Below, one piece after another: positions 13,516 through 59,058 of a stretch of DNA of 64,000 nucleotides. The translations under genes and the position numbers were made by a program. The notes under the pieces were generated by a model, which did no database searches, was not told the origin of the DNA, and was given only the letters and a program-made list of their open reading frames with translations. The stretch comes from Psammoneis japonica (taxonomy: Eukaryota), in NCBI GenBank assembly GCA_008632985.1, contig QPGO01000045.1:434001-498000 (forward strand). Reading direction: 5' to 3'. How positions within the stretch are numbered: the stretch's first letter is position 1; each line of letters begins with the position of its first letter.

Positions 13516-13907
13516 GACGCGTTCCAGCCCTAGGTGGGACTCGGTGTGACATTGGGCCCGTAGAATTCTACGTGCGAGCTCCGTAGTACGAGAATTTAAT
13601 TAATGGATATATTTATCTTCAACATCAAATAAACGGCCAAGTTTGTGGTGCAATTATGCCTCTCACCACTCGACATTTTTGCAAATTCGCCTGCCCTACG
13701 CGATTCTTAGGACATTATAGAATCGCGCTGTAACAAAAAATGTCAAAAGTTGTTGGACGGATCGCTCAATAAAAGTGTACCGTAAAATGACACAAAATGT
13801 CGAAAAAATCACGTAGAAATCTACGTGCGCGACATACGACGAGATACAAAAAACTGTCGATGTCACAGTTCAGCAGTGCGAGGTCCCACCTAGACCTGGA
13901 ACGCGTC
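13516..13907 (+). mobile_element. 392-bp MITE, young TA-rich copy, TSD TGGC
   Basis: TIR gacgcgttccagccctaggtgggac / gtcccacctagacctggaacgcgtc, with tggc at 13512-15 and 13908-11. Confidence 0.95.
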
Positions 13908-14400
13908 TGGCATGCCATTCTAGAAGCAGAAGAATCATTGCTTCGCTGCCTTCCTCCGCAGCACAGTCAAAGACCGTTGCACCATCCCCATCAGTCCAAC
14001 TGAAGTTGGCACCATGCTGCAAGAGAAGTCGTGCCCCCTCCACATTGTCATCCACAACGGCACACATCAAAGGAGTGAGGCCCGACTCCATTGCCGTGTC
14101 AACCGCCTCAGGATTGAACTTCAGAAGCTCATGCAAAATGTTCGCCCGGCCTTCTTTTGGAGCTGCCATGTGGAGAATCGTCACTGGAGGACCATCCGCT
14201 AATCTCATTTTGACCCCAATCTCAGCTCTGTGTTCCAGCAACAGTCAAGTCACTTTTTCGTTCCCACCAAACATGGAATGAAGCAATGGCGTTCCCCCAT
14301 CAGCTTCAAAGGCATCCACACATTGGGCGGTGCACAGCGACAAAGATGCAGCCAATCCTCAGCGGCGCACATTCCACTGCATTGAATTCAAAAGCTGCTT
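13908..14400 (-). pseudogene. Ankyrin-repeat protein pseudogene, interrupted by a MITE
   Basis: Ankyrin motifs TILHMAA, GLTPLMCAV...ARLLLQHGAN, GATVFDCAA, with Cys/His where Tyr is typical. Confidence 0.75.
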
Positions 14401-18151: not shown

Positions 18152-20618
18152 ATGCCGTTAACAGAGTCGTCTAGTGAAAAGAAGAAGAAAAAGAAAAAGT
18201 CTTCAAAGCGATCCAACAAGTCTGAGAAACCTCGTCATGATGATCCCGAGCCACAGATCCAAGATCACGAAGTAAATGTTGCGGTTCATCGTGTTCGCTG
18301 TTTGAAGTACAAGCCTACCCCGATTGTAGCAATGGCATCTGCACGTGTTGTTGGAAGAAGACGTGGTCGCATTGAGTCGGAGCAACGGGCACGTGGAATT
18401 AAAAAGTCCGTCTCAGAAATGGCGCACGCTGTCAACCATTCACGGTCAGTCGAATCGTCCAATCAACGCCATGGTCTGGACTCGTTGTTCGAACAATAAC
18501 AACAACACTCTTGTTGGTGCTTCGTCAGATGGTACCTTGTCTGTGTTGGATTGGGAGCAGGGTGTGTCCCGTAGCGTTGTTTCCTCTGGGGGAGGTGGTG
18601 TGCAGTGCTTGGCGAGTCTCTGCAATCACGCCGAAAACAACGACGAGTATAAGACATGCTGTAATCTTTTATTGTCGGTTGCATGGAGACGCATCCCTGG
18701 CAAGAACGACAGTAGTACTGTCTTGTATGCGGCAGTTGCGGCTGGAATCATTCGGCGTTATGATTCTTCATCTTTGGCTGAAAGCAGTATGAAATGGTCG
18801 TCTACGTTACGCATGACGGTGGAATGCTTGGGAACACCCACTCCAACCCTGACGTGGAGTCTTTTGGCCTTGCACGGTGGCGACACCGTCGTGTCGGATG
18901 ATTCCTTGGGTCATGGTCAGTTTTGGAATGGCAAGACAGGAACGCTCATTTCGAATTGTAATCAGAATGATTCTCATGCAGACGTATTGTGCTTGGCGAC
19001 CACGGTGGATTCAAGAGTTGTGTGTATCGAGAAACAACTCCACAAGAATAATTGGATCTTGACTCATGCGCAACGACCGCATACACATGATGTCAAGGCC
19101 ATGGCTGTAGCTCATGATGGCGGTGGCAATTCTCAAGAGTACTTGTGCAGTGATGGTATCGATACCAAGTTGCGTGCCTACAACACAAAGCGAAAAGAGT
19201 TTGCAAAGGATCGTCCCAAAATCATATATCCGTGGCCAAGCGTGTCGCCCATTACGGTGGCGCCGCAAGGCCGAATCTTGGCCTTGATAAGACCTGGATT
19301 CTTCGTCGTCCCTCGTAGCCGATCAAGATGCCGGGGAAAGCTTGTCCACGTTAAACATCAAGAGTACAACAAATCTCATTTGTGCTGCCATGGATTCGGA
19401 CGCGACTTTAATTGGCTGTCTCAGATGCACTGCATGGACTGCTCATATTTCAGCTGGGCATCAACCTACATGACAAAGCAGTGAATTCTAGTCAAGTTCC
19501 GCTGCCGTCGTCCATGAGATTCCCTTGTGTTTCTGTCACTTTCTGTGGTCCGGGTCGACTAGCTTGCGCTACAATTCATGGTAAGATTGTTATCGTGGAA
19601 CTCGGAAAAGACGACAGTGACAAGGTCGTCGTAGAGAACCACCATACTGTCTCTACTGACGACGTGGTAGATCAGAGAATGGGCTTGTTCTCAATCCATA
19701 ATTTCAGCGCCTCGCATGATGGACAATGGCTTGTTGCATGCCAAAATGGTATGAATCAACAAGGACAGATTCAAGTCTTTTCGAAAAATGACGATGGCTC
19801 CTATCAGCATTTATGGACTGTACCGTAACTCGATGTCCCATTTACAATCGCAGATTTTTTGCTTGGAGAGAAGGTACAGTTGATTGTTTCGTGTATCAAC
19901 TGCGGGTTTTATATCTTTGACTTGAAGGAAAAGTCTCTATCAAAATGGAGCGAGAGGGCTGGCTTTCCAATTACGCCGGTTTTGCCTCAGGAACTAGCGA
20001 GTCGTAATGATTACCCAGTTCGATTTGCCTTCAACAAGGCAACTCCCAACAAACTTGCAATGTTGCGTTATGGATTCACCTTGCCATGACAAAGCAAGAA
20101 CGTTATTGCGTCATGCCGGTAAAGGAACTCTTTTTCGTGGCGTGCAGGCTTGTCACCCTTGCAAGATTGACCTGCCCTTATTTTTTTTCGCCCATTTGTG
20201 CAACACGAAAGAATGCACCCGTGGTATAGTAGGGGGCTACAATCCAAAACGACCATGTATCTCGTGAAACGGATATCACTTACACGGTTTCGCTCTTTGT
20301 TTCCTTTATTTTGCAGGGATCGTTTGGCGCCCTTTGTTCTGTTGACTTGGACAAGGCGATACCAAAGCACTGTCGCATTTTCCCGGAAAGGCACGTGCGA
20401 GGGGTCAAACGTCGTAAACCAAACGAACGAAACGACGATTCCCAAAACAAAACAGTTTCTGACCAAGAGACGAACAACTTGACCATTTGCTTACGTTACA
20501 ATAGCGTTCTTCACATGAACTTTCTCGGAGCAAATGAGTTGCTCGTTGTGGAACAACCGTGGCTAAGCGTCGTGGCGAGCTTTCCCGATGCCATGGAAAA
20601 AAACTTTACGGAAGTTGA
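18152..20618 (+). CDS. UTP4: U3 snoRNA-associated protein 4 (UTP4/cirhin, WD40), with frameshifts and a stop
   Basis: VHRVRCLKYKPTPI, DSLGHGQFWNG, RPHTHDVKAM, GIDTKL and C-terminal LLVVEQPW...LYGS*. TAA at 19826-28. Probable intron near 20.06-20.32 kb. Confidence 0.8.
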
Positions 20619-33826: not shown

Positions 33827-36800
33827 CTACACTAGCTCGAGGTGGGAGTCGGCACTACTGTCACACGAAGCGTTCAAATTTCCATACTGGACGTCTGGAT
33901 GACTCGAGGTGATGAAATGACTTGATGTAGCAAGCAACTTTGAGCAAAGAAAACACAAACGCTCAATAATACCTTCGGTTTTCAGTTTGCCATCCTCCTC
34001 GATTAGCGGTTTTGAATAGGTTCTTAGGGACAGACTGCTACTCACGACACTTACTGAACTGAAAGCCATCATCAAGCCCGCAAATTCCGGCGGCAATCGC
34101 CAGCTGGTTATTGGATACAAAGCCCCGGCAGCAAATGGCAATGCACAAAGATTGTAACCTATAGCCCAAACAAAGTTTAGTCGGATTCGATGGAACACAA
34201 CTCGAGAAAGATGCAATGCCACCACGACGTCATGGAGTGACGAACGAACCAATACCACGTCTGCTGCTTCGACCGCGACTTGGGTCCCTGCACCAATCGC
34301 TACTCCAACGTCGGCGCGAGCCAGTGCAACTGCATCATTGATGCCATCTCCCACCACCGCTACTCGACCGAGTTGATGCTCTTCTCGTGATTCTCGCCGT
34401 CTCCCAATGCTCCGTCGTAGCGACGTACCTCGCTGCTTTTTCTGCAGTCGAGTGACCAGATCAGCCTTACCCTCGGGTTTCACGTTCGGACAAACATTTT
34501 CGATGTCAATTCCGACCTGTCTGGCGACGCTAGATGCGGTGACTTCGTGATCGCCAGTACACATCCAGACATCCAAACCCATTCTGCGAAGAGCCGCAAT
34601 AGTCGACCGAGCCTCCGGGACGATTGGGTCAACGATTCCCAACACCCCCACAACACGTCGACGCACGTTATCTTCTGTTGTCTTTGGTATCCGACGTATA
34701 ACACTTACGTAAACTCCAACTTGACCGCGTCTGCGAAGATCCATTACTTCCGTGTCTCCGACACATGATGCTCCATCACCTGTGATTCATTTCTGCTCAG
34801 TGACGCGTCATCTGACATCGGCTCACTGACAAAGTGCTTGTTGCCGACCCTGACACACCACACACCCCAGGTGGCCTGATGAACCAAACATTCAACACCC
34901 GAACCTGGCACCACGACAAAATCCGTTACTGATACTCCTTCCTCGGAGCAAGTTACATCTGCGCCCCATGTCGCGCTTGCGGCATTCACAATAGCCTTTG
35001 CAAGTGGGTGCTCACTCTGTCGTTCCGCACATGCAGCCAACCAGAGAGCGATGTGTTCTCTGGATATCTTTGTCGGCAGTCCATGCAGAAGCGGGTCTGT
35101 TGTACTCGAAGTGTCAATGAACTCAAAATGGTCTCCCAAGACAGCGCGTCCACTTGTGATGGTTCCTGTCTTATCCAAAACAATCGTATCGACGCTGTGA
35201 GCACTTTCCAAAACCGCTCCACCCTTGATGAGTAAACCATTCGTCGCTCCGACGCCTGTTTCGATTGCAGCGCAATGAAGTACGTGAACAAAACATGGCC
35301 CTTAAGAAAAGAAATTACCCACAGCATTGTTTTGACATACCTGTTCCCACCATCACCGCTGTAGGCGTTGCGAGTCCAAGGGCACAAGGACAGGCTACCA
35401 CAATCACACTAATAGCTGAAGTCAATGCCATGAAGAATCGTTCCTCCAAGCTTCCTTAACAAATATCATCCACGCACAGAAAGTGACAGTAGCCAACGCC
35501 AGGACGGTCGGAGCAAAGATGCATGCGATTGCATCCGCTTGAGCTTGAATTGGAGCCCGGCTGCTTTGGGCGTCTTCCACGAGCTTTACAATCTTCGCAA
35601 GCATCGTGCCACCGCCTGTTGCAGTCACTCGAATTAGCAAGACGCTCAATTGGTTCACAGTCGAGCCAAACACCGAATCACCCACTGCTTTTGCCACAGG
35701 AAAGGGCTCGCCCGAAAAGGCGGATTCGTCAATGTAGGCATACGCGCCGTCGTTCTGGGATGCGGATACCAAAACACCGTCCGTGGGAATACGAGCACCT
35801 GGCATTACAACCAGGTACTCTCCAACTTCGACTTGGTCTATTTGTACATTTTCTGTTTCTAAGGAAGATATGTCAACGTCTGTCGTATGATTGGGAAGGA
35901 TCCTTCGAAACGACTCGCAAGGCAAATACAGGTTGTAGTTCCATGAGTGTTTGTAACGCCGAGGCCGTCTTCCCTTTGGCGTACGCTTCCAGAAACTTGC
36001 CAAAAGTGACAAACATGATAAGCATGGCGCCAGTCTCAAATGTCGGCTTGAGCTTCGTCACATTGCTGGAGAAGAGCAGGATACAGTATACGGCAAGAGA
36101 ATACATGTAGGACGCAGTCGTTCCCATCACAACCAAAGCGTCCATCCCCATTGTTGGCCACGCCTTGAAGGCAGCTTGGTAGTATCTCCGTCCAACTCCA
36201 AACTGCACAGGCGTTGCCAGAATAAATATAATGGTGTCTTTATGAGTTGGACAAGCCGACGACATATCGTCATCGTCCTTCATTTGTGAATAGTGAATAA
36301 TCATGATTGGCACGGTCAAAACAACGGCAGCCAACAATAGTCGTTTCCAGGACTGCAACTCTTGCTTACGCGCTTGTTCCATTTTGGCAGCATTCTCAGC
36401 CAAGGATACTCCTTGCCTACAGCACTGGAGTTGGGGTCCACGACTTGAATCACGTCACAGTCGTAGCCTCCCTTTTGCACAGCCTCGACACATCTCGAGC
36501 TACATCTTGAATGTTTTGGTTACTTTTGAATACGACTCTTGCTCGATTCATGGCTAGTGTAACCGTGGCACGTTCGACACCATTAACGGATAGCAGTGCC
36601 TGTTCTACTCGTCCCGTACAAACCGCACAACTCATCCCTCCCACTTGAAGGGATGCTCCAGGTTTGTTCGAATCGTGTTGGTCGTTTGCGTCGTCCAAAA
36701 GCGGCTCATCCAAATCACTCGATAACGATTCTGTTCGATTTCTACTAGATTGTATTAGCGGCGGCGATGTGAGCGGTAATTCTTGGTCGGGCGGAAGAGT

Positions 36801-37574
36801 CGTGCATCAAAACCCACGCACTCGACGGCGTCTATTGCTTCGTCGACAAGCTTGCGGTGGAGTGCTTCAAGTGAGTCTAGCTTGCTGTCTTGATAAGCGC
36901 GTAGATCCGCCGTGACATTGGCGAGACTGTTTTCAAAAGACACTGCTACAAATTCTATACCTGGTAAGGCTTTGAGTGCGTTCTCCGCAGTCGTTCCTAC
37001 ATGGCAAAAGATGAATCAAACAATTAGAGGTCTTGCTTCTTCAATATTTTCATCTCTAAAGAATTCAGTTACTCACCACAATTTTTCTGACACATCATGC
37101 CCGTAACTACTAGACGAATAGTACTGCTCATGGGATTTTTTTGATGAATAACCTCGGCATCAAAGCCAACACACTCCACGGCATCCACCGCTTGTTCTTC
37201 CATGCAGCGCATAGGGTCTTGTCCGCCATGGGAATAGGCATTTAAATCCGCCGTGAGAATAGCTCGGCTCTGCTCAAAGGAAGCGCTCGCGGATATGACT
37301 CCTGGAAGAACTCTTAAAGCATTCTCCACCGTGGTGCCTATAAGAAAATAGCAAGTTTTGCAATCACACACAACACACAAGTCGTCAAAACGCGCAAGTG
37401 AGAAGTGAGAAGCATGTTGTCACTGTATACTCAAAAGGAACTCTCAAGAAGAAACGTACCGCAGCTCTTTTGGCACATCATCCCCGTAACTTTCAACACA
37501 ACCGTGTGTGTCGCGTCTTTGTTACTGTCCCAGTCATTCTCAACAGCAGCATGCGGCTGCAGCGACGACGCCAT
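33827..37574 (-). CDS. Cu(I)-transporting P1B-type ATPase with three N-terminal HMA domains
   Basis: [57 protein letters not shown] and MAFSS. GT-AG introns at ~37338-37459, 36997-37076 and 35256-35340. Several frameshifts. Confidence 0.93.
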
Positions 37575-37748: not shown

Positions 37749-39999
<2,251 letters not shown>

Positions 40000-42900: not shown

Positions 42901-43027
42901 CGACGACAGAAATTGGCTATTTTATAAGTGTCAAGACTCAATTCTTCGCGAACCATCAAAGCCGCGACGACATCGCTGGCGGAGCAGGTTTGGGCTTCGC
43001 ATAATCTTTAACAACATCAATTCAATC

Positions 43028-46000
43028 ATGTCCCCTAATAAATTGGACGAAGACAAAACAAGCGCACCTGTCTTCCTGGAAAGCCCTTAAGCAGCTCCAA
43101 GGTGCGATCTACCAGTATGAGTATGCAGACCCTTATGGTGAAGGTTGAGTTCCACGATGACAACGATGGCTCAGTTATCGCTGTGGAAGTTCCAACTGGA
43201 ACAAAAGTGACAGAAGTAGCCACGAAGGCTGGAGTGAGTATCCCCACCCTCTGTCATCACCCTCGTTTGTCTCCGGTAGGAAAGTGTGGCCTCTGCGTCG
43301 TGTCTGTTGAGAACGGACCGACTCCGACGCAATTGGCATGTTCGACTGTATGCCGAGCTAACGAGGATGGGAGCCCAATCAAAGTGCATGTTCACGGCAC
43401 GTTTCTGAATGGGCTCGCTAACGCGGCATTGCAGAGGAACTTGCAAGCCTCCCTCTCCCATCAAACGAAGAAGTTTCAAGACAATCATGACTTTGCGGCT
43501 TGCGGCTCTTTGGAGATTGAAGATCTTGCCAACTTTGTCACCAACGAAAATATTGATACGTCGTCGAGATGTATCATCTACGACCCATCCCCTTTGTGTT
43601 GGCTGTTCACGATGCGTTCGGGCTTGTGATCAGCTTCAAGGTATGAAGATTCTCGAGGCACCTTTACACAAAAGCAACCCTCCTCTCGTCGGTATCGCCA
43701 AAGCCCCTCCGTGTATGACGACACGTGCCGGTCGTCCCCTGTCAGAGACAGAGTGCATTTCTTGTGGACAGTGCACCGTATTCTGTCCGACGGGTGCAAT
43801 TAAAGAAGTGGACCATACACTGCGAGTGATGCGAGCCCTGCTGGACCCCGAGATGGTTGTTGTCCTGCAGACAGCTCCCAGTGTTCGCGTCACTATTTCC
43901 GAGATGTTTGGTGGCAAGCCCGGAGATTGTTCTGAAGGCAGACTTGTTGGGGCCGCTAAAGCAGCCGACTTTCGCTTCGTATTCGATACCAACCTAACCG
44001 CCGATATAACCATCATGGAAGAAGCGAACGAGCTTTTGCAGCGCATCGATATTGCCGAGAATGGCAACGATGAAGAAAAGAAGTCTAAGCCTCTTCCCAT
44101 GTTCACCTCGTGTTGTCCAGGTTGGATAAACCTGGTGGAGCAGTCTTATCCAGAGCTTATTCCTCACCTTTCCACCTGTCGTTCGCCCATGGGAATGTTA
44201 TCGAGCATCGTTCGTCACCACTGGTGGCCTAGACAGACCAACATTCTCAACCAACACGGCACTTCATCCGTGGAAGCCGAAGACGAAGCAGTCGACCAGT
44301 CGAAGCTCTTTGTGGTTGCCGCCATGCCCTGCACTGCAAAGAAAGACGAGAGGGCACGACCGCAACTCAAGATGTCCAACGGCAAACCAGAGACGGGCGC
44401 TGTCTTGACGATTCAAGAGTTCGCACGCTTGTTTGAGTTACGCCAGGTTGCCCAACTCAACAACTACAAGTCCTTTGCAAGCATCCCTGAGCTTGTGTAC
44501 GATAACCCTTTTTGAGAGTCGACTGGGGGCGGCTATCATCTTTTGAGTCACAGGGGGCGTAGCCGAAGCTGCTTTGCGCACCGCCGCGGACGTCTTGAGT
44601 GGCAAGAACCTGGAGAACGTCCAGGACGAATCTGTCAGAGGCATGTATGGTATCAAAGAGTCGACCATTCAGCTTGGTCCTAATGGCGAGGTTGCGTTGA
44701 ACGTAGCGGTCGCCCACCAAATGCGAAATGTTCGCGACTTTCTGGCCCAACTTGAAGAAGGAAACAAGAACTATCATTTCATAGAAGTTATGGCGTGCCC
44801 CGGAGGCTGTATCGGCGGCGGAGGGTTGCCTCAGAGCAGAGATGAAGATATTCTTCCCAAACGCATTGATGGCATCTATTCCTTGGACGAAAGAACGGTG
44901 GTACGAAAGTCACACGAGAATCAAGCCGTCAAGCGACTATACGAGGACTTTTTGAAGAAGCCTCTCTCCCCACTTTCCCACAAGTTGTTGCACACCCACT
45001 ACTTCCCACGACCAAGGAAGCCACCTATTGCGCTCAAGGCTCCAGCTCTTGTTGCGAAAGTTGAAACCGAGGGCAATAGTAATACTGTCTATGTGGTGTA
45101 TGGAACGCAGAGCGGAACGGCTGCTCAAGCAGCCAAGGAGATCAAGCTTGAGTTGCAGGGATTTATCGGACAAGCCAAGTTATCGCCTGAGCCACAAGTT
45201 TGCCTCGCGTAGCTGGCAACGCTATGCATCCTGACAAGCTCATGAAGAGTGTTTCTGATTCGCTCGGAACAATATTTGTCACCTGTACGTTTGGCGAAGG
45301 TGAGTTCCCGGAGACTATGGAGCAGCTCTGGGACTATTTGGAAGAATGTAAAGACGACAAGTACGAGGAGTTTCGCTTTGGCGTGTTTGGACTCGGCTCG
45401 TCAATGTACGCTGTTGGCGACCAGTTTAATCGAGCCGCGAAACGGCTGGACAAAGACTGGAAGAAGTGGGAGGAAGTAGAATGATCGAGGTGGGATTGGG
45501 CGATGACCAGCATTCTGAGTTATATAGGAGTGAGCTAGAGAAGTGGCTCGAGAAACTGTTTCCGAAGCTCTTCGGAAAAGAAGGTGGTGGGGCATCATTG
45601 CTTGATCCACCCGAACCGTTGTTCAAGCTTGCTCTTGCACCAGGAACGCATGATAGTCAGTTTCGTCCTTTCCCTCCAAGTTATCACTATGTTAAATTGG
45701 AATCCGCCGAAAGTCAAGTGGCTGTTGGGTATGATCGTCCAGCGTCTATCTTTACATTCGATCTTTTTTAACGGGTTGTGGAGAGAATTTTTTCCCTTTA
45801 TTCAGGCAGCATCAACGGATCAAGTCTGCTGACCGTCGAACCCGTCGATTGTCACAGTGATTGTCCTTTCCCTCCGGTGTTGACTGCTAAAGAGCTACTG
45901 ACTCAGTATCTCGACCTTTGTGGGAGGCCATCCCGTTCATTCTGTAAGCAGCTCTTCCTCTTTGCCACTTCGCCCGAAGCTCGCAACATTCTCAGAGCTC

Positions 46001-46921
46001 TTTTTGAGCGCACTGAGACAAAGTCGCAAGAGGAGCCAGCTCCGTACACCGCACGGCTACGATCACAAACCTGCGATCGTGAGAAAGTTAATCAGGAGGA
46101 GTTTGAGCGCTACACTGCGACTCTTCCGTATGCGGACGTCTTGTGTGATTTTGGTTACAAGGCGTTGCCTCCCTTCGAGTACCTGCTTTCGATGGTGCCG
46201 AAGATTTGTCCCCGATTGTACTCGATTGCCTCTTCTCCACTTTATCAAAAGAATAAACTTGATCTGTTGGTTGTCTTGAACGAGTGGACGGATCCAAACA
46301 TGAAGACGAGAGTTGGTTTGGCCACGCAGTTTTTGTTTGGTGCGGACATCGGAGATAAGGTCGCTATTCAGGTACGCACAGGCATTCTTCAGCCTCCGGC
46401 GGACACAACTACCCCCATCGTTTGCTTTGGTTTGGGATCGGGAATTGCACCCTTCTGCGGCTTCTTGCAGCATCGGCAACGACAGCACGAGCAATAGGCG
46501 CGTAGCTTGGACCTGCGACTCTATACGTTTGGTATCGTCACGAGACAATGGAATACTATACTTGAAAGACGATTTCGAAGAATGGATGAAATTATTAGTG
46601 TTGACCTGTGTGCATCCCGCCTTCTCTCATGATGATCGAGAGAAGCGAGGCGGAAAGCTCTATTTCATTTCAGATCTTATTGGCGATAAACCAAAGGACA
46701 TGGCCAAGGCATTGCTTCTGGAGGAGGAAAAAGAAGAGGAAGACAACCAAGTTCATGTGTATTATTGTGGACTAGCGCTTGGTATCCCTGAGACCATCCA
46801 GCATGCGATGGAGGATGCAGTCAAGCACGAGGAAGGTGGTGGAATGGACGAAGAAGAGGCAGAAGCCTTGATGGAGCGTTTGGTCTACTTAGAGGATAGA
46901 TTCCATGCAGAATGCTTTTAG
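43028..46921 (+). CDS. hydA: [FeFe]-hydrogenase fused to flavodoxin and FAD/NAD(P)-binding (CysJ/CPR-like) domains, with indels and stops
   Basis: 2Fe-2S motif (CHHP...CGLC...AC); two 4Fe-4S motifs (CVGCSRCVRAC, CISCGQCTVFCP); H-cluster motifs TSCCPGW, MPCTAKKDE, EVMACPGGCIGGGG; small-subunit RKSHEN...LLHTHY. Then YGTQSGTA in the same ORF, TCTFGEG, FGLGSS, RLYSIASS, GSGIAPF, VYYCG and ECF*. Confidence 0.92.
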
Positions 46922-47419
46922 TTTCGCCTGACCGCTTTGCATGATGGCTCGGATCGGAGTTGCGACGCCATTGCATGCTACACTTCTGCATATTATTTAG
47001 TAATAAGTTAGCAAATAGTTATCAGGATACTTCGCTTGGTCGGCTTGTTCTACTAGCTACTATACAAGGCGAATGCATTTACCGGCATTGTTGATCGGAG
47101 TTACACCACAAGCACCATGAGCGCTGCACACCTTTGCTGTGGTTGGAAAGGAAGGAAAGATTCATGTGGCATTTTGCCACCACATGCAAGCGAAGCGCAG
47201 GCCTTTGGAAGCTAACGCTGTCGAGGCGCCGCGCAAAGCCACACCTTGGCAGAGTTAGAACCGGATGCTTGAATCAGAAGGACAACATAACAGAAGTCAA
47301 AGTGAGATGGATCCGCATTATGAAGAGTGGCATTTTCTTAGGACGCATCGCATCAGTCAAACAAACTCGTCTGTTCAATCCAAATCCACGTTGCGCTGTT
47401 GCGTGAAAGGAAACTACCT

Positions 47420-48915
47420 CAGCTGTCATGCGCCTGGTGTCTAACACCTCGGAGCACTGAAATGCTGCCACCTCGATTGCTGTTCTTGCAATGAGTGCCT
47501 TGGCATGACAGGCGGTGAGTCCAACAACAATGCCACGCGCACTCTCCTCCCAAGTGAGCCAGCAAAGGCGGGGGGACAAACCGCACCCCGCCAGCGTCAT
47601 CAACGGCAGACGCCAAATCTGCAATGTCTTTGGCGCCCTCACCGAACTGCAAGTTGTCGCGGAGCCATTGGACAAGCAATCCTGCCATGGCAACAGCACC
47701 TTCAAGAGCGTAAACTGATGGCTCTCCCTTGACTTGGTGAAAAGGAGTCGCCATGAGTCCACATTTTGAAATTTGAGGTTTCTCCTGCGCACCCACATTC
47801 ATTGTGAGAAAGGCTCCAGTTCCAAATGCAGCCTTGGCTTCTCCCACTTGCAAGCAAGCTTGACCAAACATTGCAGTGTGTTGGTCACCAAAGAATTGCT
47901 CCAATGGTTGCAACTCTGGACACGACACCAATGGAGTGTCATCAAGTTGCAAAGCAGAGTCCTCGCCACATTTGTCACAACTGCCACGTGCTTTTCTCCA
48001 CCCGCAAGCTTGTGCAAGAGCCAAGAATCAATTGTCCCAAAGCATCCGTCACGTGCCTTGCCCTCCAAGCCGTGCACATTGTCAAACATCCACCGCAATT
48101 TGGTCGCCGAAAAGTGGGCACAATTTGGAAGCCCCGTTTTAGAAAGCAAGGCATCTTTTCCTCCTGGGCTCTTGCATTGGTCAGCAACAAGTCCCGTGGT
48201 TCGTCCACAATTCCAAACAAAAGCAGACACAGTGGCTCTCCTGAATCCTTGTCCCACACGATGGTCATTTCCCTCTGAATGGTGGCTCCAATTGACACGG
48301 CTGAATTGCTCGTGATGTTTGTTTTAGCGAGTGCATCCGAAATGCACCCCATGCAGAATTGTCCCAGGTCTCGGAGGCATCATGTTTGACCCATCCGGAC
48401 TGAGGACAATGCTGTTTGTGCTCGCTCTGAGAAGAGGAGACGGGCTTGCCAAACCTGTCATGCAGAACAAAGTAAGTCGATGAGGCATCCTGATGTGTTC
48501 CAGGTCCAGGTTGGACCTCGTGCCACTGAACTGTGACATCGACAGTTTTTTGAGTCACGTCACATGTCGCGCACGTAGATTTCCATGTGATTTTTGCGAC
48601 ATTTTGCATCGTTTCACGGTGCACTTGTTGAGCGATCCATCCAACAACTTTTGACATTTTTTTTTGCAGCGCAATTCTACAATGTCTTAAGAATCGCGTG
48701 GGGCAGGCGCGTTTGCAAAAACGTCGAGTGGCACAAGGCACAATTGCACCACAAACTTGGCAGTTTGTTTGATGTTAAAGACAAACACATCCATTGATTA
48801 AATTCTCACACTGCGGAGCTCGCACGTGGAATTCCACGGGCCCAATGTCACACAGAGTCCCACCTGGGGCTGGAACGCATCTCCTGATCAAGGGATCTGA
48901 CACATTGCTCTGTTG
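47420..48915 (-). pseudogene. glpK: Glycerol kinase pseudogene, interrupted by a MITE
   Basis: SLDQ|ASST, EHKQHCPQSGWV, QREMTIVWDK, HFSATKLRW, FGTIDSWLL, GDQH, FGTGAF, YALEG, VQWLRDNL. Confidence 0.9.
48492..48881 (-). mobile_element. ~390-bp MITE, eroded, TSD TCCT
   Basis: Colinear with the reverse complement of 13516-13907, with tcct on both sides. Confidence 0.92.
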
Positions 48916-57907: not shown

Positions 57908-58092
57908 GAAATGAAGCAAGATTGGTCCTTCGCGCACGTGCCAACAGCCGAACGCAACCGCCGCGCAAACAAAAAACACACGACACAACATACCGTTTCC
58001 ATTCGCGGGAGTTGAGCGGGTCAAAAACAACTCCACGAGCCAAGTGTTACAAATACACAAGCAAGTAGAGTCGTGCGAAGAAGGACACGCCC

Positions 58093-59058
58093 ATGAACTT
58101 GGAAAGAAGAAGCCAACAACATCGAGATACCTCCCAAAGAGTCGTTTGGTCGACCTGGAACGAAGAGCGGACAAAAGACTTTCCTCAGATTCTCCAATAT
58201 CGCGAAGAATGGAGAAGCTTTGGCTATGAACTATCTGTGACTCCAAATGTGGATATTCGATTGGATGTAGAAAGGCTCGTTCGAGAGACAAAAAAGCATC
58301 ACTTACTGAGAGTGTTTGACAGTCTTGCAACAAAAAATATGCAGTTTGATTTCTGGCGTTTTACCAAACTCTACTTGGACGGTGGTGTTTATGCAGATGT
58401 CGATGTAAGGCCGAAACTTGACATTATCAAGTGGCAGGATGAAGCACGGGCCAGTGGCTCGGTTGTATTGTTTGAAGAATCTCCAGCGTACATGGCGAAC
58501 TCGACATTCTTTCATGCGGTCCGGCCTATCTTTTCCAATTTTCAAGAGTTGCCCTCGTATGCAAGTTGTGTCGTTGTCGCGCCCGGTCCCAAGTCACAGT
58601 TCTTTCTCGATCTGCTTTTGCAAGTGCACCCTGAAAAGTGGGAGAACGAAAGAGAGCCCCGTCGGACGCTCATGACGGCAGGGCCAGGACTTTTAACAAA
58701 ATTTGCCAAGAAACGAGAAGATGTGGTTTTAGCTTCAAGACTGGACGCTAGCCACTCATATGTCCATACCTCGTTTGGAACGTGGAAGCCACAACAGACT
58801 CTGCTTTACGAGAAATACGGAATGTTAATTCCAGTCTTCTCATGTTTGATTGTTTTCCTTGGATGCTACTATTATGTTCGAGGGCGCAGACGAAGAATAA
58901 AAAAGAAGAAGAGATGTCCTCGAGAAGAAGAGGAAGACGAATGCTCAAGCTTGGAGGATGATATGGAAAGAGGTTCAATGTCATTTTGTGATAGAAAAGA
59001 CGACTCCAACTTGATTCGACGAACGTCTGTGGAATCCATGGCGAAGGACAAGGAGTGA
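58093..59058 (+). CDS. GT32-family (OCH1/SUR1-like) DxD glycosyltransferase with a C-terminal TM helix
   Basis: DFWRFTKLYLDGGVYADVDV, TAGPGLLT, HTSFGTW. Intact 321-aa ORF; the true start may be upstream. Confidence 0.8.
   Translation: MNLERRSQQHRDTSQRVVWSTWNEERTKDFPQILQYREEWRSFGYELSVTPNVDIRLDVERLVRETKKHHLLRVFDSLATKNMQFDFWRFTKLYLDGGVYADVDVRPKLDIIKWQDEARASGSVVLFEESPAYMANSTFFHAVRPIFSNFQELPSYASCVVVAPGPKSQFFLDLLLQVHPEKWENEREPRRTLMTAGPGLLTKFAKKREDVVLASRLDASHSYVHTSFGTWKPQQTLLYEKYGMLIPVFSCLIVFLGCYYYVRGRRRRIKKKKRCPREEEEDECSSLEDDMERGSMSFCDRKDDSNLIRRTSVESMAKDKE

Follow-up and report, generated by a model that had tools for sequence, protein, structure and literature searches.

Introduction

[FeFe]-hydrogenases fused to a CysJ-like reductase are described for Trichomonas vaginalis, Pygsuia biforma and Stygiella incarcerata (Fe-hydrogenase 2 and 3), where excerpts of PMC4989108 give them as predicted cytosolic proteins. 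In these protists HydA is followed by a C-terminal flavodoxin and an FAD/NAD(P)H reductase and there is no targeting peptide. Here we report a locus of the same plan on the plus strand of a 64,000-nucleotide stretch of Psammoneis japonica DNA (contig QPGO01000045.1, positions 434,001 to 498,000; this whole stretch is called the window, and positions are counted from its first letter). Judged from its sequence, this is a nuclear diatom gene whose predicted product joins an [FeFe]-hydrogenase and a diflavin reductase of the CysJ/cytochrome-P450-reductase-like type in one chain. The window copy is probably a disabled allele or duplicate of this real diatom gene family, possibly within a decaying segment, that stands beside an unbroken-looking form.

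Hydrogenases of diatoms have been discussed mainly for a different gene. In the excerpts of PMC10407231 and PMC8003979 the HYDA1-like gene of Thalassiosira pseudonana clusters with sequences from bacteria and is restricted to centric diatoms, and the former source states that among diatoms such genes occur only in Coscinodiscophyceae. The same portion of PMC10407231 reports that neither HYDEF nor HYDG was found in T. pseudonana, where H2 was barely detectable; likewise, the excerpted PMC8003979 has no maturases identified in this species. Hydrogenogenic fermentation has been linked to benthic diatoms in the part of PMC8443593 that cites Bourke et al. 2017. Our literature search found no description of a HydA-flavodoxin-FNR fusion in diatoms.

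Domain order and start of the fusion gene

Seven consecutive plus-strand open reading frame (ORF) pieces between 43102 and 46921 carry hydrogenase and reductase domains in a Pfam scan. From 43117 to 46921 (+) the order is a [2Fe-2S] domain, two [4Fe-4S] sites, the H-cluster domain, a small-subunit-like domain, a flavodoxin, and the FAD-binding and NADPH-binding parts. An intact diatom protein (P0004, 1289 amino acids) aligns colinearly by tblastn over residues 1-1289 to 43102-46918, six frame changes being needed on the way, and with a second query (P0002, 1126 amino acids) the window is again colinear from residue 1 to the last residue. The first-pass annotation of the locus, made from the letters, had read F-domain clusters, H-cluster motifs, a small subunit and a diflavin reductase here, and Pfam, motifs and tblastn colinearity confirm all four.

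Read along this alignment, the gene falls into eight plus-strand pieces. The first (43117..43590) contains the start codon, the [2Fe-2S] ferredoxin-like domain (Fer2_4, E = 1.3e-9; tblastn frame +1, 43102-43599), the sequence NHDFAAC and a linker to ..IIYDPS. In piece 2 (43592..44527; Fe_hyd_lg_C, E = 3.6e-51, and Fer4) the [4Fe-4S] sites CVGCSRCVRAC and CISCGQCTVFCP are followed by the greater part of the H-domain, including FTSCCPGW and MPCTAKKDE. Piece 3 (44529..45206; Fe_hyd_SSU, E = 2.1e-23; Fe_hyd_lg_C, E = 4.7e-15) completes the H-domain (GGVAEAAL, EVMACPGGCIGGGG) and goes on through the small-subunit-like domain and a linker into the first strand of the flavodoxin. The middle of the flavodoxin domain lies in piece 4 (45209..45451; Flavodoxin_1, E = 1e-11; 84% identity to P0004), and its end with the connecting region in piece 5 (45454..45765; tblastn frame +1). 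Piece 6 (45772..46494) supplies the FAD-binding domain with RLYSIASS (FAD_binding_1, E = 3.4e-23) and the start of the NADPH-binding site (GLGSGIAPFCGF, with Arg changed to Cys), piece 7 (46497..46556; tblastn frame +3) is the short stretch GA*LGPATLYVWYRHETMEY, and piece 8 (46559..46921) is the C-terminal NADPH-binding part to ..RFHAECF and the stop TAG at 46919-46921 (65% identity to P0004 residues 1170-1289). The last ORF piece, 46313-46921, matched no Pfam family, NAD_binding_1 included, whereas the orthologues do carry PF00175.

ORF 44574-45212 runs from the H-domain end through the small-subunit domain to the first strand of the flavodoxin (TVYVVYGTQSGT), and therefore the hydrogenase-flavodoxin junction lies inside a single frame, just where it had first been placed. 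Across 44529-45206 HydA and the flavodoxin reductase are thus joined as one polypeptide, as CysJ-fused enzymes are. Every cysteine motif for the [2Fe-2S] site, for both [4Fe-4S] sites and for the H-cluster is present, and 8/8 intact diatom proteins keep them. For the H-cluster these are FTSCCPGW, MPCTAKKDE and EVMACPGGCIGGGG, with cysteines at the same positions as in the eight proteins; we take them to be the motifs named L1 (TSCCPxW), L2 (MPCxxKxxE) and L3 (ExMxCxGGCxxGGG). By these motifs the predicted protein is a member of [FeFe]-hydrogenase group A (HydA). NHDFAAC, previously read as a degenerate His-ligated cluster site, proves to be one in the motif alignment, and it is degenerate across the whole diatom clade, not in the window copy alone.

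The gene had been thought to begin at 43028, but the ATG there heads a short upstream frame that is closed by TAA at 43088-43090. The likely start, as read from the alignment, is ATG 43117 or 43123, the same position as the orthologue starts. No presequence is evident, because the protein begins directly at the [2Fe-2S] domain as the orthologues do, in line with the earlier impression that a signal peptide is missing. Introns were considered as the source of the frame changes and rejected, as the protein alignment runs on without interruption, each junction leaving 0-2 spare bases and no DNA gap of the kind an intron would need, compared with GT..AG introns of 86 and 133 nt in the nearby cpn60 gene. 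The gene is thus intronless, as first described. The earlier statement that hydE, hydF and hydG are missing from the window also stands, in that no radical-SAM or HydF-like Pfam match occurs in 178 of the 189 stop-to-stop ORFs of at least 110 amino acids outside the locus.

Orthologues and phylogeny

A protein collection queried with the largest ORF piece yielded intact diatom orthologues of 1261-1410 amino acids with 64-84% identity over the H-domain piece. The matches P0001-P0016 include metagenome and assembly proteins, among them P0002 (84% identity), P0004 (77%), P0005 from a Bacillariaceae metagenome-assembled genome, P0006 of Nitzschia inconspicua (IV203_036041; 1272 amino acids, 75% identity, on a 6.57-Mb contig) and P0011 of Amphora coffeiformis (A0A7S3PBK2; 1346 amino acids, from a culture transcriptome). 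In the databases the diatom orthologues are named only 'hypothetical protein' or 'NADPH--hemoprotein reductase'. Among eight intact diatom proteins 459 of 1070 ungapped columns are invariant. A metagenome scan with P0004 gave only two further relatives (L001 4417-7525 and L002 3510-4769; 53-54% identity), which fall outside the close diatom group; the contig of P0004 itself was not among the matches.

In a FastTree phylogeny of 59 rows, built from whole proteins with both halves together, the 17 diatom-type rows are united in a single clade (support 100) on a stem of 0.7 changes per column, and the window row lies within a 5-row clade (support 99) inside it. Around the diatom clade the tree places CysJ-fused enzymes from Stygiella, Pelomyxa, Mastigamoeba, Paratrimastix, Trimastix, Chilomastix and Barthelona, with weak support (82-88) for the deeper forks; rows of the bacterial A6 type and those from green or red algae lie apart. 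The likeness to HydA-CysJ-like protist fusions that had been pointed out is thus borne out by the tree. On this sequence comparison the locus is orthologous to the intact raphid pennate diatom proteins, and the family is real, conserved in the pennate clade and of the CysJ-fused protist type.

These data also bear on a possible foreign origin of the gene, by contamination with an anaerobic protist or bacterium or by a very recent transfer. The idea draws on an architecture otherwise known from anaerobic protists (excerpts of PMC4989108) and on the statement, in the available part of PMC10407231, that diatom HYDA1-like genes are limited to Coscinodiscophyceae. Against it, the gene shares its contig with diatom genes on both sides, a Cu-ATPase and a cpn60 that has GT..AG introns and a presequence of the ASAF type on one and a glycerol kinase on the other, and its orthologues are found on the 6.57-Mb Nitzschia inconspicua contig and in the Amphora transcriptome, the diatom-type rows forming the single long-stemmed clade described above. 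We consider a foreign origin scarcely credible, the least probable of the explanations weighed here. The diatom host thought probable in the first-pass annotation is likewise upheld, the best matches of the hydrogenase, cpn60 and Cu-ATPase all being diatoms. The window sequence itself gives no indication of whether the organism is photosynthetic, and a phototrophic lifestyle is presumed for the host.

Lesions in the window copy

The window copy is broken by six frameshifts, four in-frame stops and one 57-nt deletion (19 codons). In the HydA half, an extra C in a CCCC run (43588..43591, frame +1 to +2) falls just before the first CxxCxxCxxxC motif, and an extra G in a GGGGG run (44525..44529) moves the frame from +2 to +3. 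On either side of the latter, TGA stops at 44513-44515 in piece 2 and at 44544-44546 in piece 3 each replace a Gly that is invariant in 8/8 intact diatom proteins. With these two stops and the frameshifts at 43589 and 44525 the HydA half gives no full-length open frame.

Further downstream, two extra bases (cg, 45207..45208) take the frame from +3 to +2 and the loss of one base (45452..45454) from +2 to +1. The deletion is seen as an alignment gap at 45766..45771, a site that also holds an in-frame TAA (45769-45771); the 57 nt (~19-20 residues) lost there include the motif GDHL.(V/L)LPRNP of the FAD domain, which is kept in 8/8 intact diatom proteins. Two extra bases (ta) at 46495..46496 change the frame from +1 to +3, an in-frame TAG follows at 46503-46505 in piece 7, and another two extra bases (ta) at 46557..46558 change it from +3 to +2. 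Other invariant residues are altered as well, the Met of GGVMEAAL (8/8 orthologues) to Ala and the Arg of APFRGF to Cys. Complete FMN, FAD and NAD(P)H modules are consequently not retained, with GDHL..LPRNP gone, the Arg of GxGxAPFRGF replaced by Cys, and three frameshifts and two stops in the reductase half. Read as written, the window copy is non-functional at the sequence level, and the claim of a self-contained hydrogenase is not supported for it. The lesions are unlike errors of the homopolymer type, since +2 insertions account for three of the frameshifts and four stops and the 57-nt loss come in addition.

Two forms of the gene in public sequencing runs

Three public runs from one sample and one study were compared with the window as assembled contigs, not as raw reads, and they contain 0.80 (X1), 0.35 (X2) and ~0 (X3, no coverage) of its sampled 31-mers. 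No run is recorded as RNA. X2 comprises 63,789 contigs (29.9 Mb, longest 16 kb) of a library type guessed as DNA and provides a basis for no inference on expression.

The X2 contigs matching the locus (43000-43653 and 43711-46999) differ from the window at 138 letters in 3937 aligned bases, and over the gene body the divergence is 108/3283, or 3.3%. This form removes all six frameshifts by exactly the needed bases, and at the deletion 63 letters replace the 6 of the window. At 43589 the base is left out in both runs (depth 74.4/74.4 in X1 and 96.7/96.7 in X2). At the next four sites X2 carries the fix at its full depth of 145.9/145.9: it omits 1 base at 44525, where X1 keeps the window form (fix 0/94.6), and 2 bases at 45206 (frameshift 3; X1 fix 65.2/220.1), has a G inserted after 45453 (frameshift 4; in X1 the G in 97.1/183.3 and an A at 45451 in 27), and omits 2 bases at 46494 (frameshift 5; X1 fix 34.9/185.9). 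X2 also omits 2 bases at 46557 (frameshift 6; X1 fix 34.9/93). Part or all of the X1 depth thus retains the window-type state at 5/6 frameshift sites, and the loose ends of X1 contigs at 45765 and 45772 extend into the codons missing from the window.

An unbroken-looking form, open at all seven indel sites and ~3.3% different, is apparently present in the same sample. The first-pass annotation would have given up its hydrogenase on confirmed indels together with the lack of an intact copy elsewhere: the first half stood, as most indels recur in X1 contigs, and the second did not, as the unbroken-looking form shows. One X1 contig, 3 letters from the window in 693, carries an extra 11-nt deletion at 46263, whose letters are present in both the X2 form and the window; the sample would seem to hold more than two forms of the hydrogenase gene.

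The differences between the two forms were classified on 40 of 135 rows, the listed differences, and the counts that follow rest on those 40. Third codon positions account for 24 of them and 22 are synonymous. The remaining 18 are non-synonymous and fall in 17 codons, and comparison with eight diatom orthologues shows the majority residue in the other form at 12, in the window at 3 and in neither at 1, with 2 split sites at which more orthologues agree with the other form. Five of the amino-acid differences are at columns invariant in 8/8 orthologues. Because the other form mostly has the residue of the orthologue majority, it is the window lineage that took most of the replacements.

Could the window copy nevertheless be expressed by recoding, with TGA read as an amino acid, by programmed frameshifting, or by insertion/deletion editing of its RNA? 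Both TGA codons do stand at invariant Gly positions, and the other form 'repairs' all indels. However, TAA and TAG stops are there too and 19 codons are gone, the six shifts (+1, +2 and -1) share no common slippery context, and no in-frame TGA occurs in the aligned exons of the neighbouring cpn60 and Cu-ATPase genes. Moreover, the other form differs at 138 letters in 3937 aligned bases, with 24 of the 40 listed changes in third codon positions, the mark of a diverged allele and not of an edited transcript, and none of the runs is labelled RNA. Recoding is very improbable on these grounds; TGA as Gly or selenocysteine was rejected along with it, given the TAA/TAG stops, the missing codons and the diverged other form.

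Neighbouring genes as a control

Three neighbouring genes were checked for breaks. A plastid-type cpn60/GroEL gene (37986-39987, +), 88% identical to a Bacillariaceae protein, has GT..AG introns at 38514-38646 and 39671-39756. Its N-terminus has ..SSASAFV.., an ASAF-type plastid presequence motif, which we take to be the type found on plastid proteins of diatoms. In two G runs within 45 nt of each other (~39294 and ~39337) a single base is missing, and there are no stops; read literally, these losses would truncate a highly conserved and presumably essential plastid chaperonin. The copper-transporting P-type ATPase (33953-37553, -), with HMA domains, introns and best matches in diatoms, shows at least five frame changes that leave no room for an intron (~36508, 36415, 35890, 35470 and 34771), one of them a T-run loss just upstream of the exon with the CPC motif, and again no stops in the aligned exons. 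In the glycerol kinase gene (FGGY; 47442-48492, -), compared at the protein level with its relatives, there are four frame changes in ~1.05 kb; a stretch of ~45-57 residues in the relatives has no counterpart between 47928 and 47907, and the C-terminal third was not located.

Since every neighbour checked is frameshifted, the damage is not specific to the hydrogenase and part of it may be assembly error. What marks out the hydrogenase is its four stops, three +2 insertions and 57-nt loss. Overlapping ORF pairs in different frames are frequent and suggest that frameshifts occur all along the window, which would then be a segment or haplotype in decay or else an assembly carrying ~1-2 indel errors per kb. 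Gene-level claims from this assembly call for read-level confirmation.

The longest stop-to-stop frame in the 64 kb has 384 amino acids (18330-19484) and no Pfam match. Only two other Pfam matches were obtained among the ORFs scanned, an ankyrin-repeat ORF at 13873-14244 (-) and a Gly_transf_sug glycosyltransferase ORF at 58069-59055 (+). The records of the Nitzschia inconspicua hydrogenase P0006 and of one of the GroL proteins of that species (P0154) each give a contig of 6,574,884 bases, and on this basis the linkage of cpn60 and hydrogenase is perhaps conserved.

A disabled copy or an assembly artefact

The breaks could instead have arisen in the assembly, the gene being intact and working and its frameshifts, perhaps also its stops, being consensus errors of an error-rich or haplotype-mixed assembly. 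Several observations speak for this and weigh against a disabled copy. The chief one is the wealth of frameshifts: all four checked genes are hit at similar density (at least 17 frameshifts in ~9.9 kb of coding sequence, ~1.7 per kb). The neighbour frameshifts have the look of assembly errors, being apparently losses of one base, several of them in base runs, and the two G-run losses in cpn60 are hard to accept as real in an essential gene. Only 80% of the window's sampled 31-mers are present in X1, so that 20% are missing from the best-matching run, the window's letter is absent from every X1 contig at 20 of the 40 listed places, and the extra base at 43589 is seen in neither X1 nor X2 contigs. 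The runs are contigs of guessed library type, and X1 may be the window's own source. The state of the other form at the stops 44513, 44544 and 46503 lies outside the listed differences. Both TGA stops result from the same change (TTTGGA read as TTTTGA) only 31 nt apart, a possible systematic error. Finally, the window has no surplus of unique amino-acid changes: its 20 at otherwise invariant columns are within the range of 8-45 of the intact orthologues, and its tree branch of 0.13 is comparable to the 0.05-0.16 of its sisters.

Assembly error is less able to account for the remaining evidence. X1 contigs retain the window form at five of the six frameshift sites, three +2 insertions and a 57-nt deletion are among the lesions, and four stops by substitution would demand a substitution error rate far above that permitted by a word share of 0.80. 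The window form has derived residues at 12/17 differing positions, and the window-like X1 contig carries its own further 11-nt deletion. We regard an error-rich assembly of a working gene as the less likely explanation, though one to be taken seriously.

The reading we favour therefore remains that of a copy disabled beside an unbroken-looking form. The window copy would be a dead allele or recent duplicate whose partner, ~3.3% different and open at the seven indel sites, is in the same sample; either decay would affect the whole segment or assembly errors would add to lesions that are real. Neither unique changes at invariant columns nor branch length revealed relaxed selection of long standing on the window copy, and because both values fall within the range of the intact orthologues there is no sign of long neutral drift. 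Since most listed differences between the two forms are synonymous, the decay, if real, would be recent.

Implications for benthic diatoms

From its domain family, an intact protein of this type is inferred to provide an NAD(P)H-linked electron path, in which electrons would pass from NAD(P)H to FAD, FMN, the [2Fe-2S] and two [4Fe-4S] clusters and the H-cluster to yield H2, or in the reverse direction. It would be located in the cytosol, given that no presequence is present, and its function would depend on maturases.

Raphid pennate, largely benthic diatoms may thus carry a working cytosolic NAD(P)H-linked CysJ-fused [FeFe]-hydrogenase as the enzyme behind the hydrogen-yielding dark fermentation credited to benthic diatoms of anoxic sands, the window holding an allele in recent decay beside an intact one. 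We put this forward tentatively. CysJ-fused hydrogenases of anaerobic protists were already known, and the intact diatom proteins were already in public databases; what the comparison adds is that the fusion is conserved across a plastid-bearing pennate clade, and this makes it a definite candidate for the gene by which benthic diatoms would produce hydrogen in the dark without oxygen. Support for the clade comes from the 17 diatom-type rows, the 459/1070 invariant columns among eight intact proteins and a member from a culture transcriptome. What can be drawn from the window is bounded by its broken copy and by the dependence of any function on maturases. A fusion in pennate diatoms contradicts the Coscinodiscophyceae-only statement as it stands in the excerpted PMC10407231.

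Comparison with known hydrogenases

The raphid pennate diatom fusion proteins share domain order, motifs and tree clade with the window gene; theirs are open, whereas the window copy is broken. The HYDA1-like gene of Thalassiosira pseudonana is also an [FeFe]-hydrogenase gene in a diatom nuclear genome and is set beside the window gene by its published description only.

Compared with the CysJ-fused protist enzymes, of which Stygiella Hyd2 (P0019) shows 49% identity, the diatom fusion has a plastid-bearing host and not an anaerobe, and its clade stands on its own long stem (0.7). PF10588 is absent from the diatom and the CysJ-fused protist matches and present in the bacterial and green-algal matches of the same search.

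Among enzymes of known structure, the H-domain piece matches the group A hydrogenases HydA1 and CpI (PDB 4xdc, 3c8y and 8a6t) with E values of 1e-49 to 2e-42 and ~40% identity. With CpI of Clostridium pasteurianum and the bifurcating-type HydA1 the diatom fusion shares TSCCP, MPC..KK.E, the two [4Fe-4S] sites and the N-terminal [2Fe-2S] domain; unlike these, it is without the His-ligated [4Fe-4S] domain and has a diflavin reductase added.

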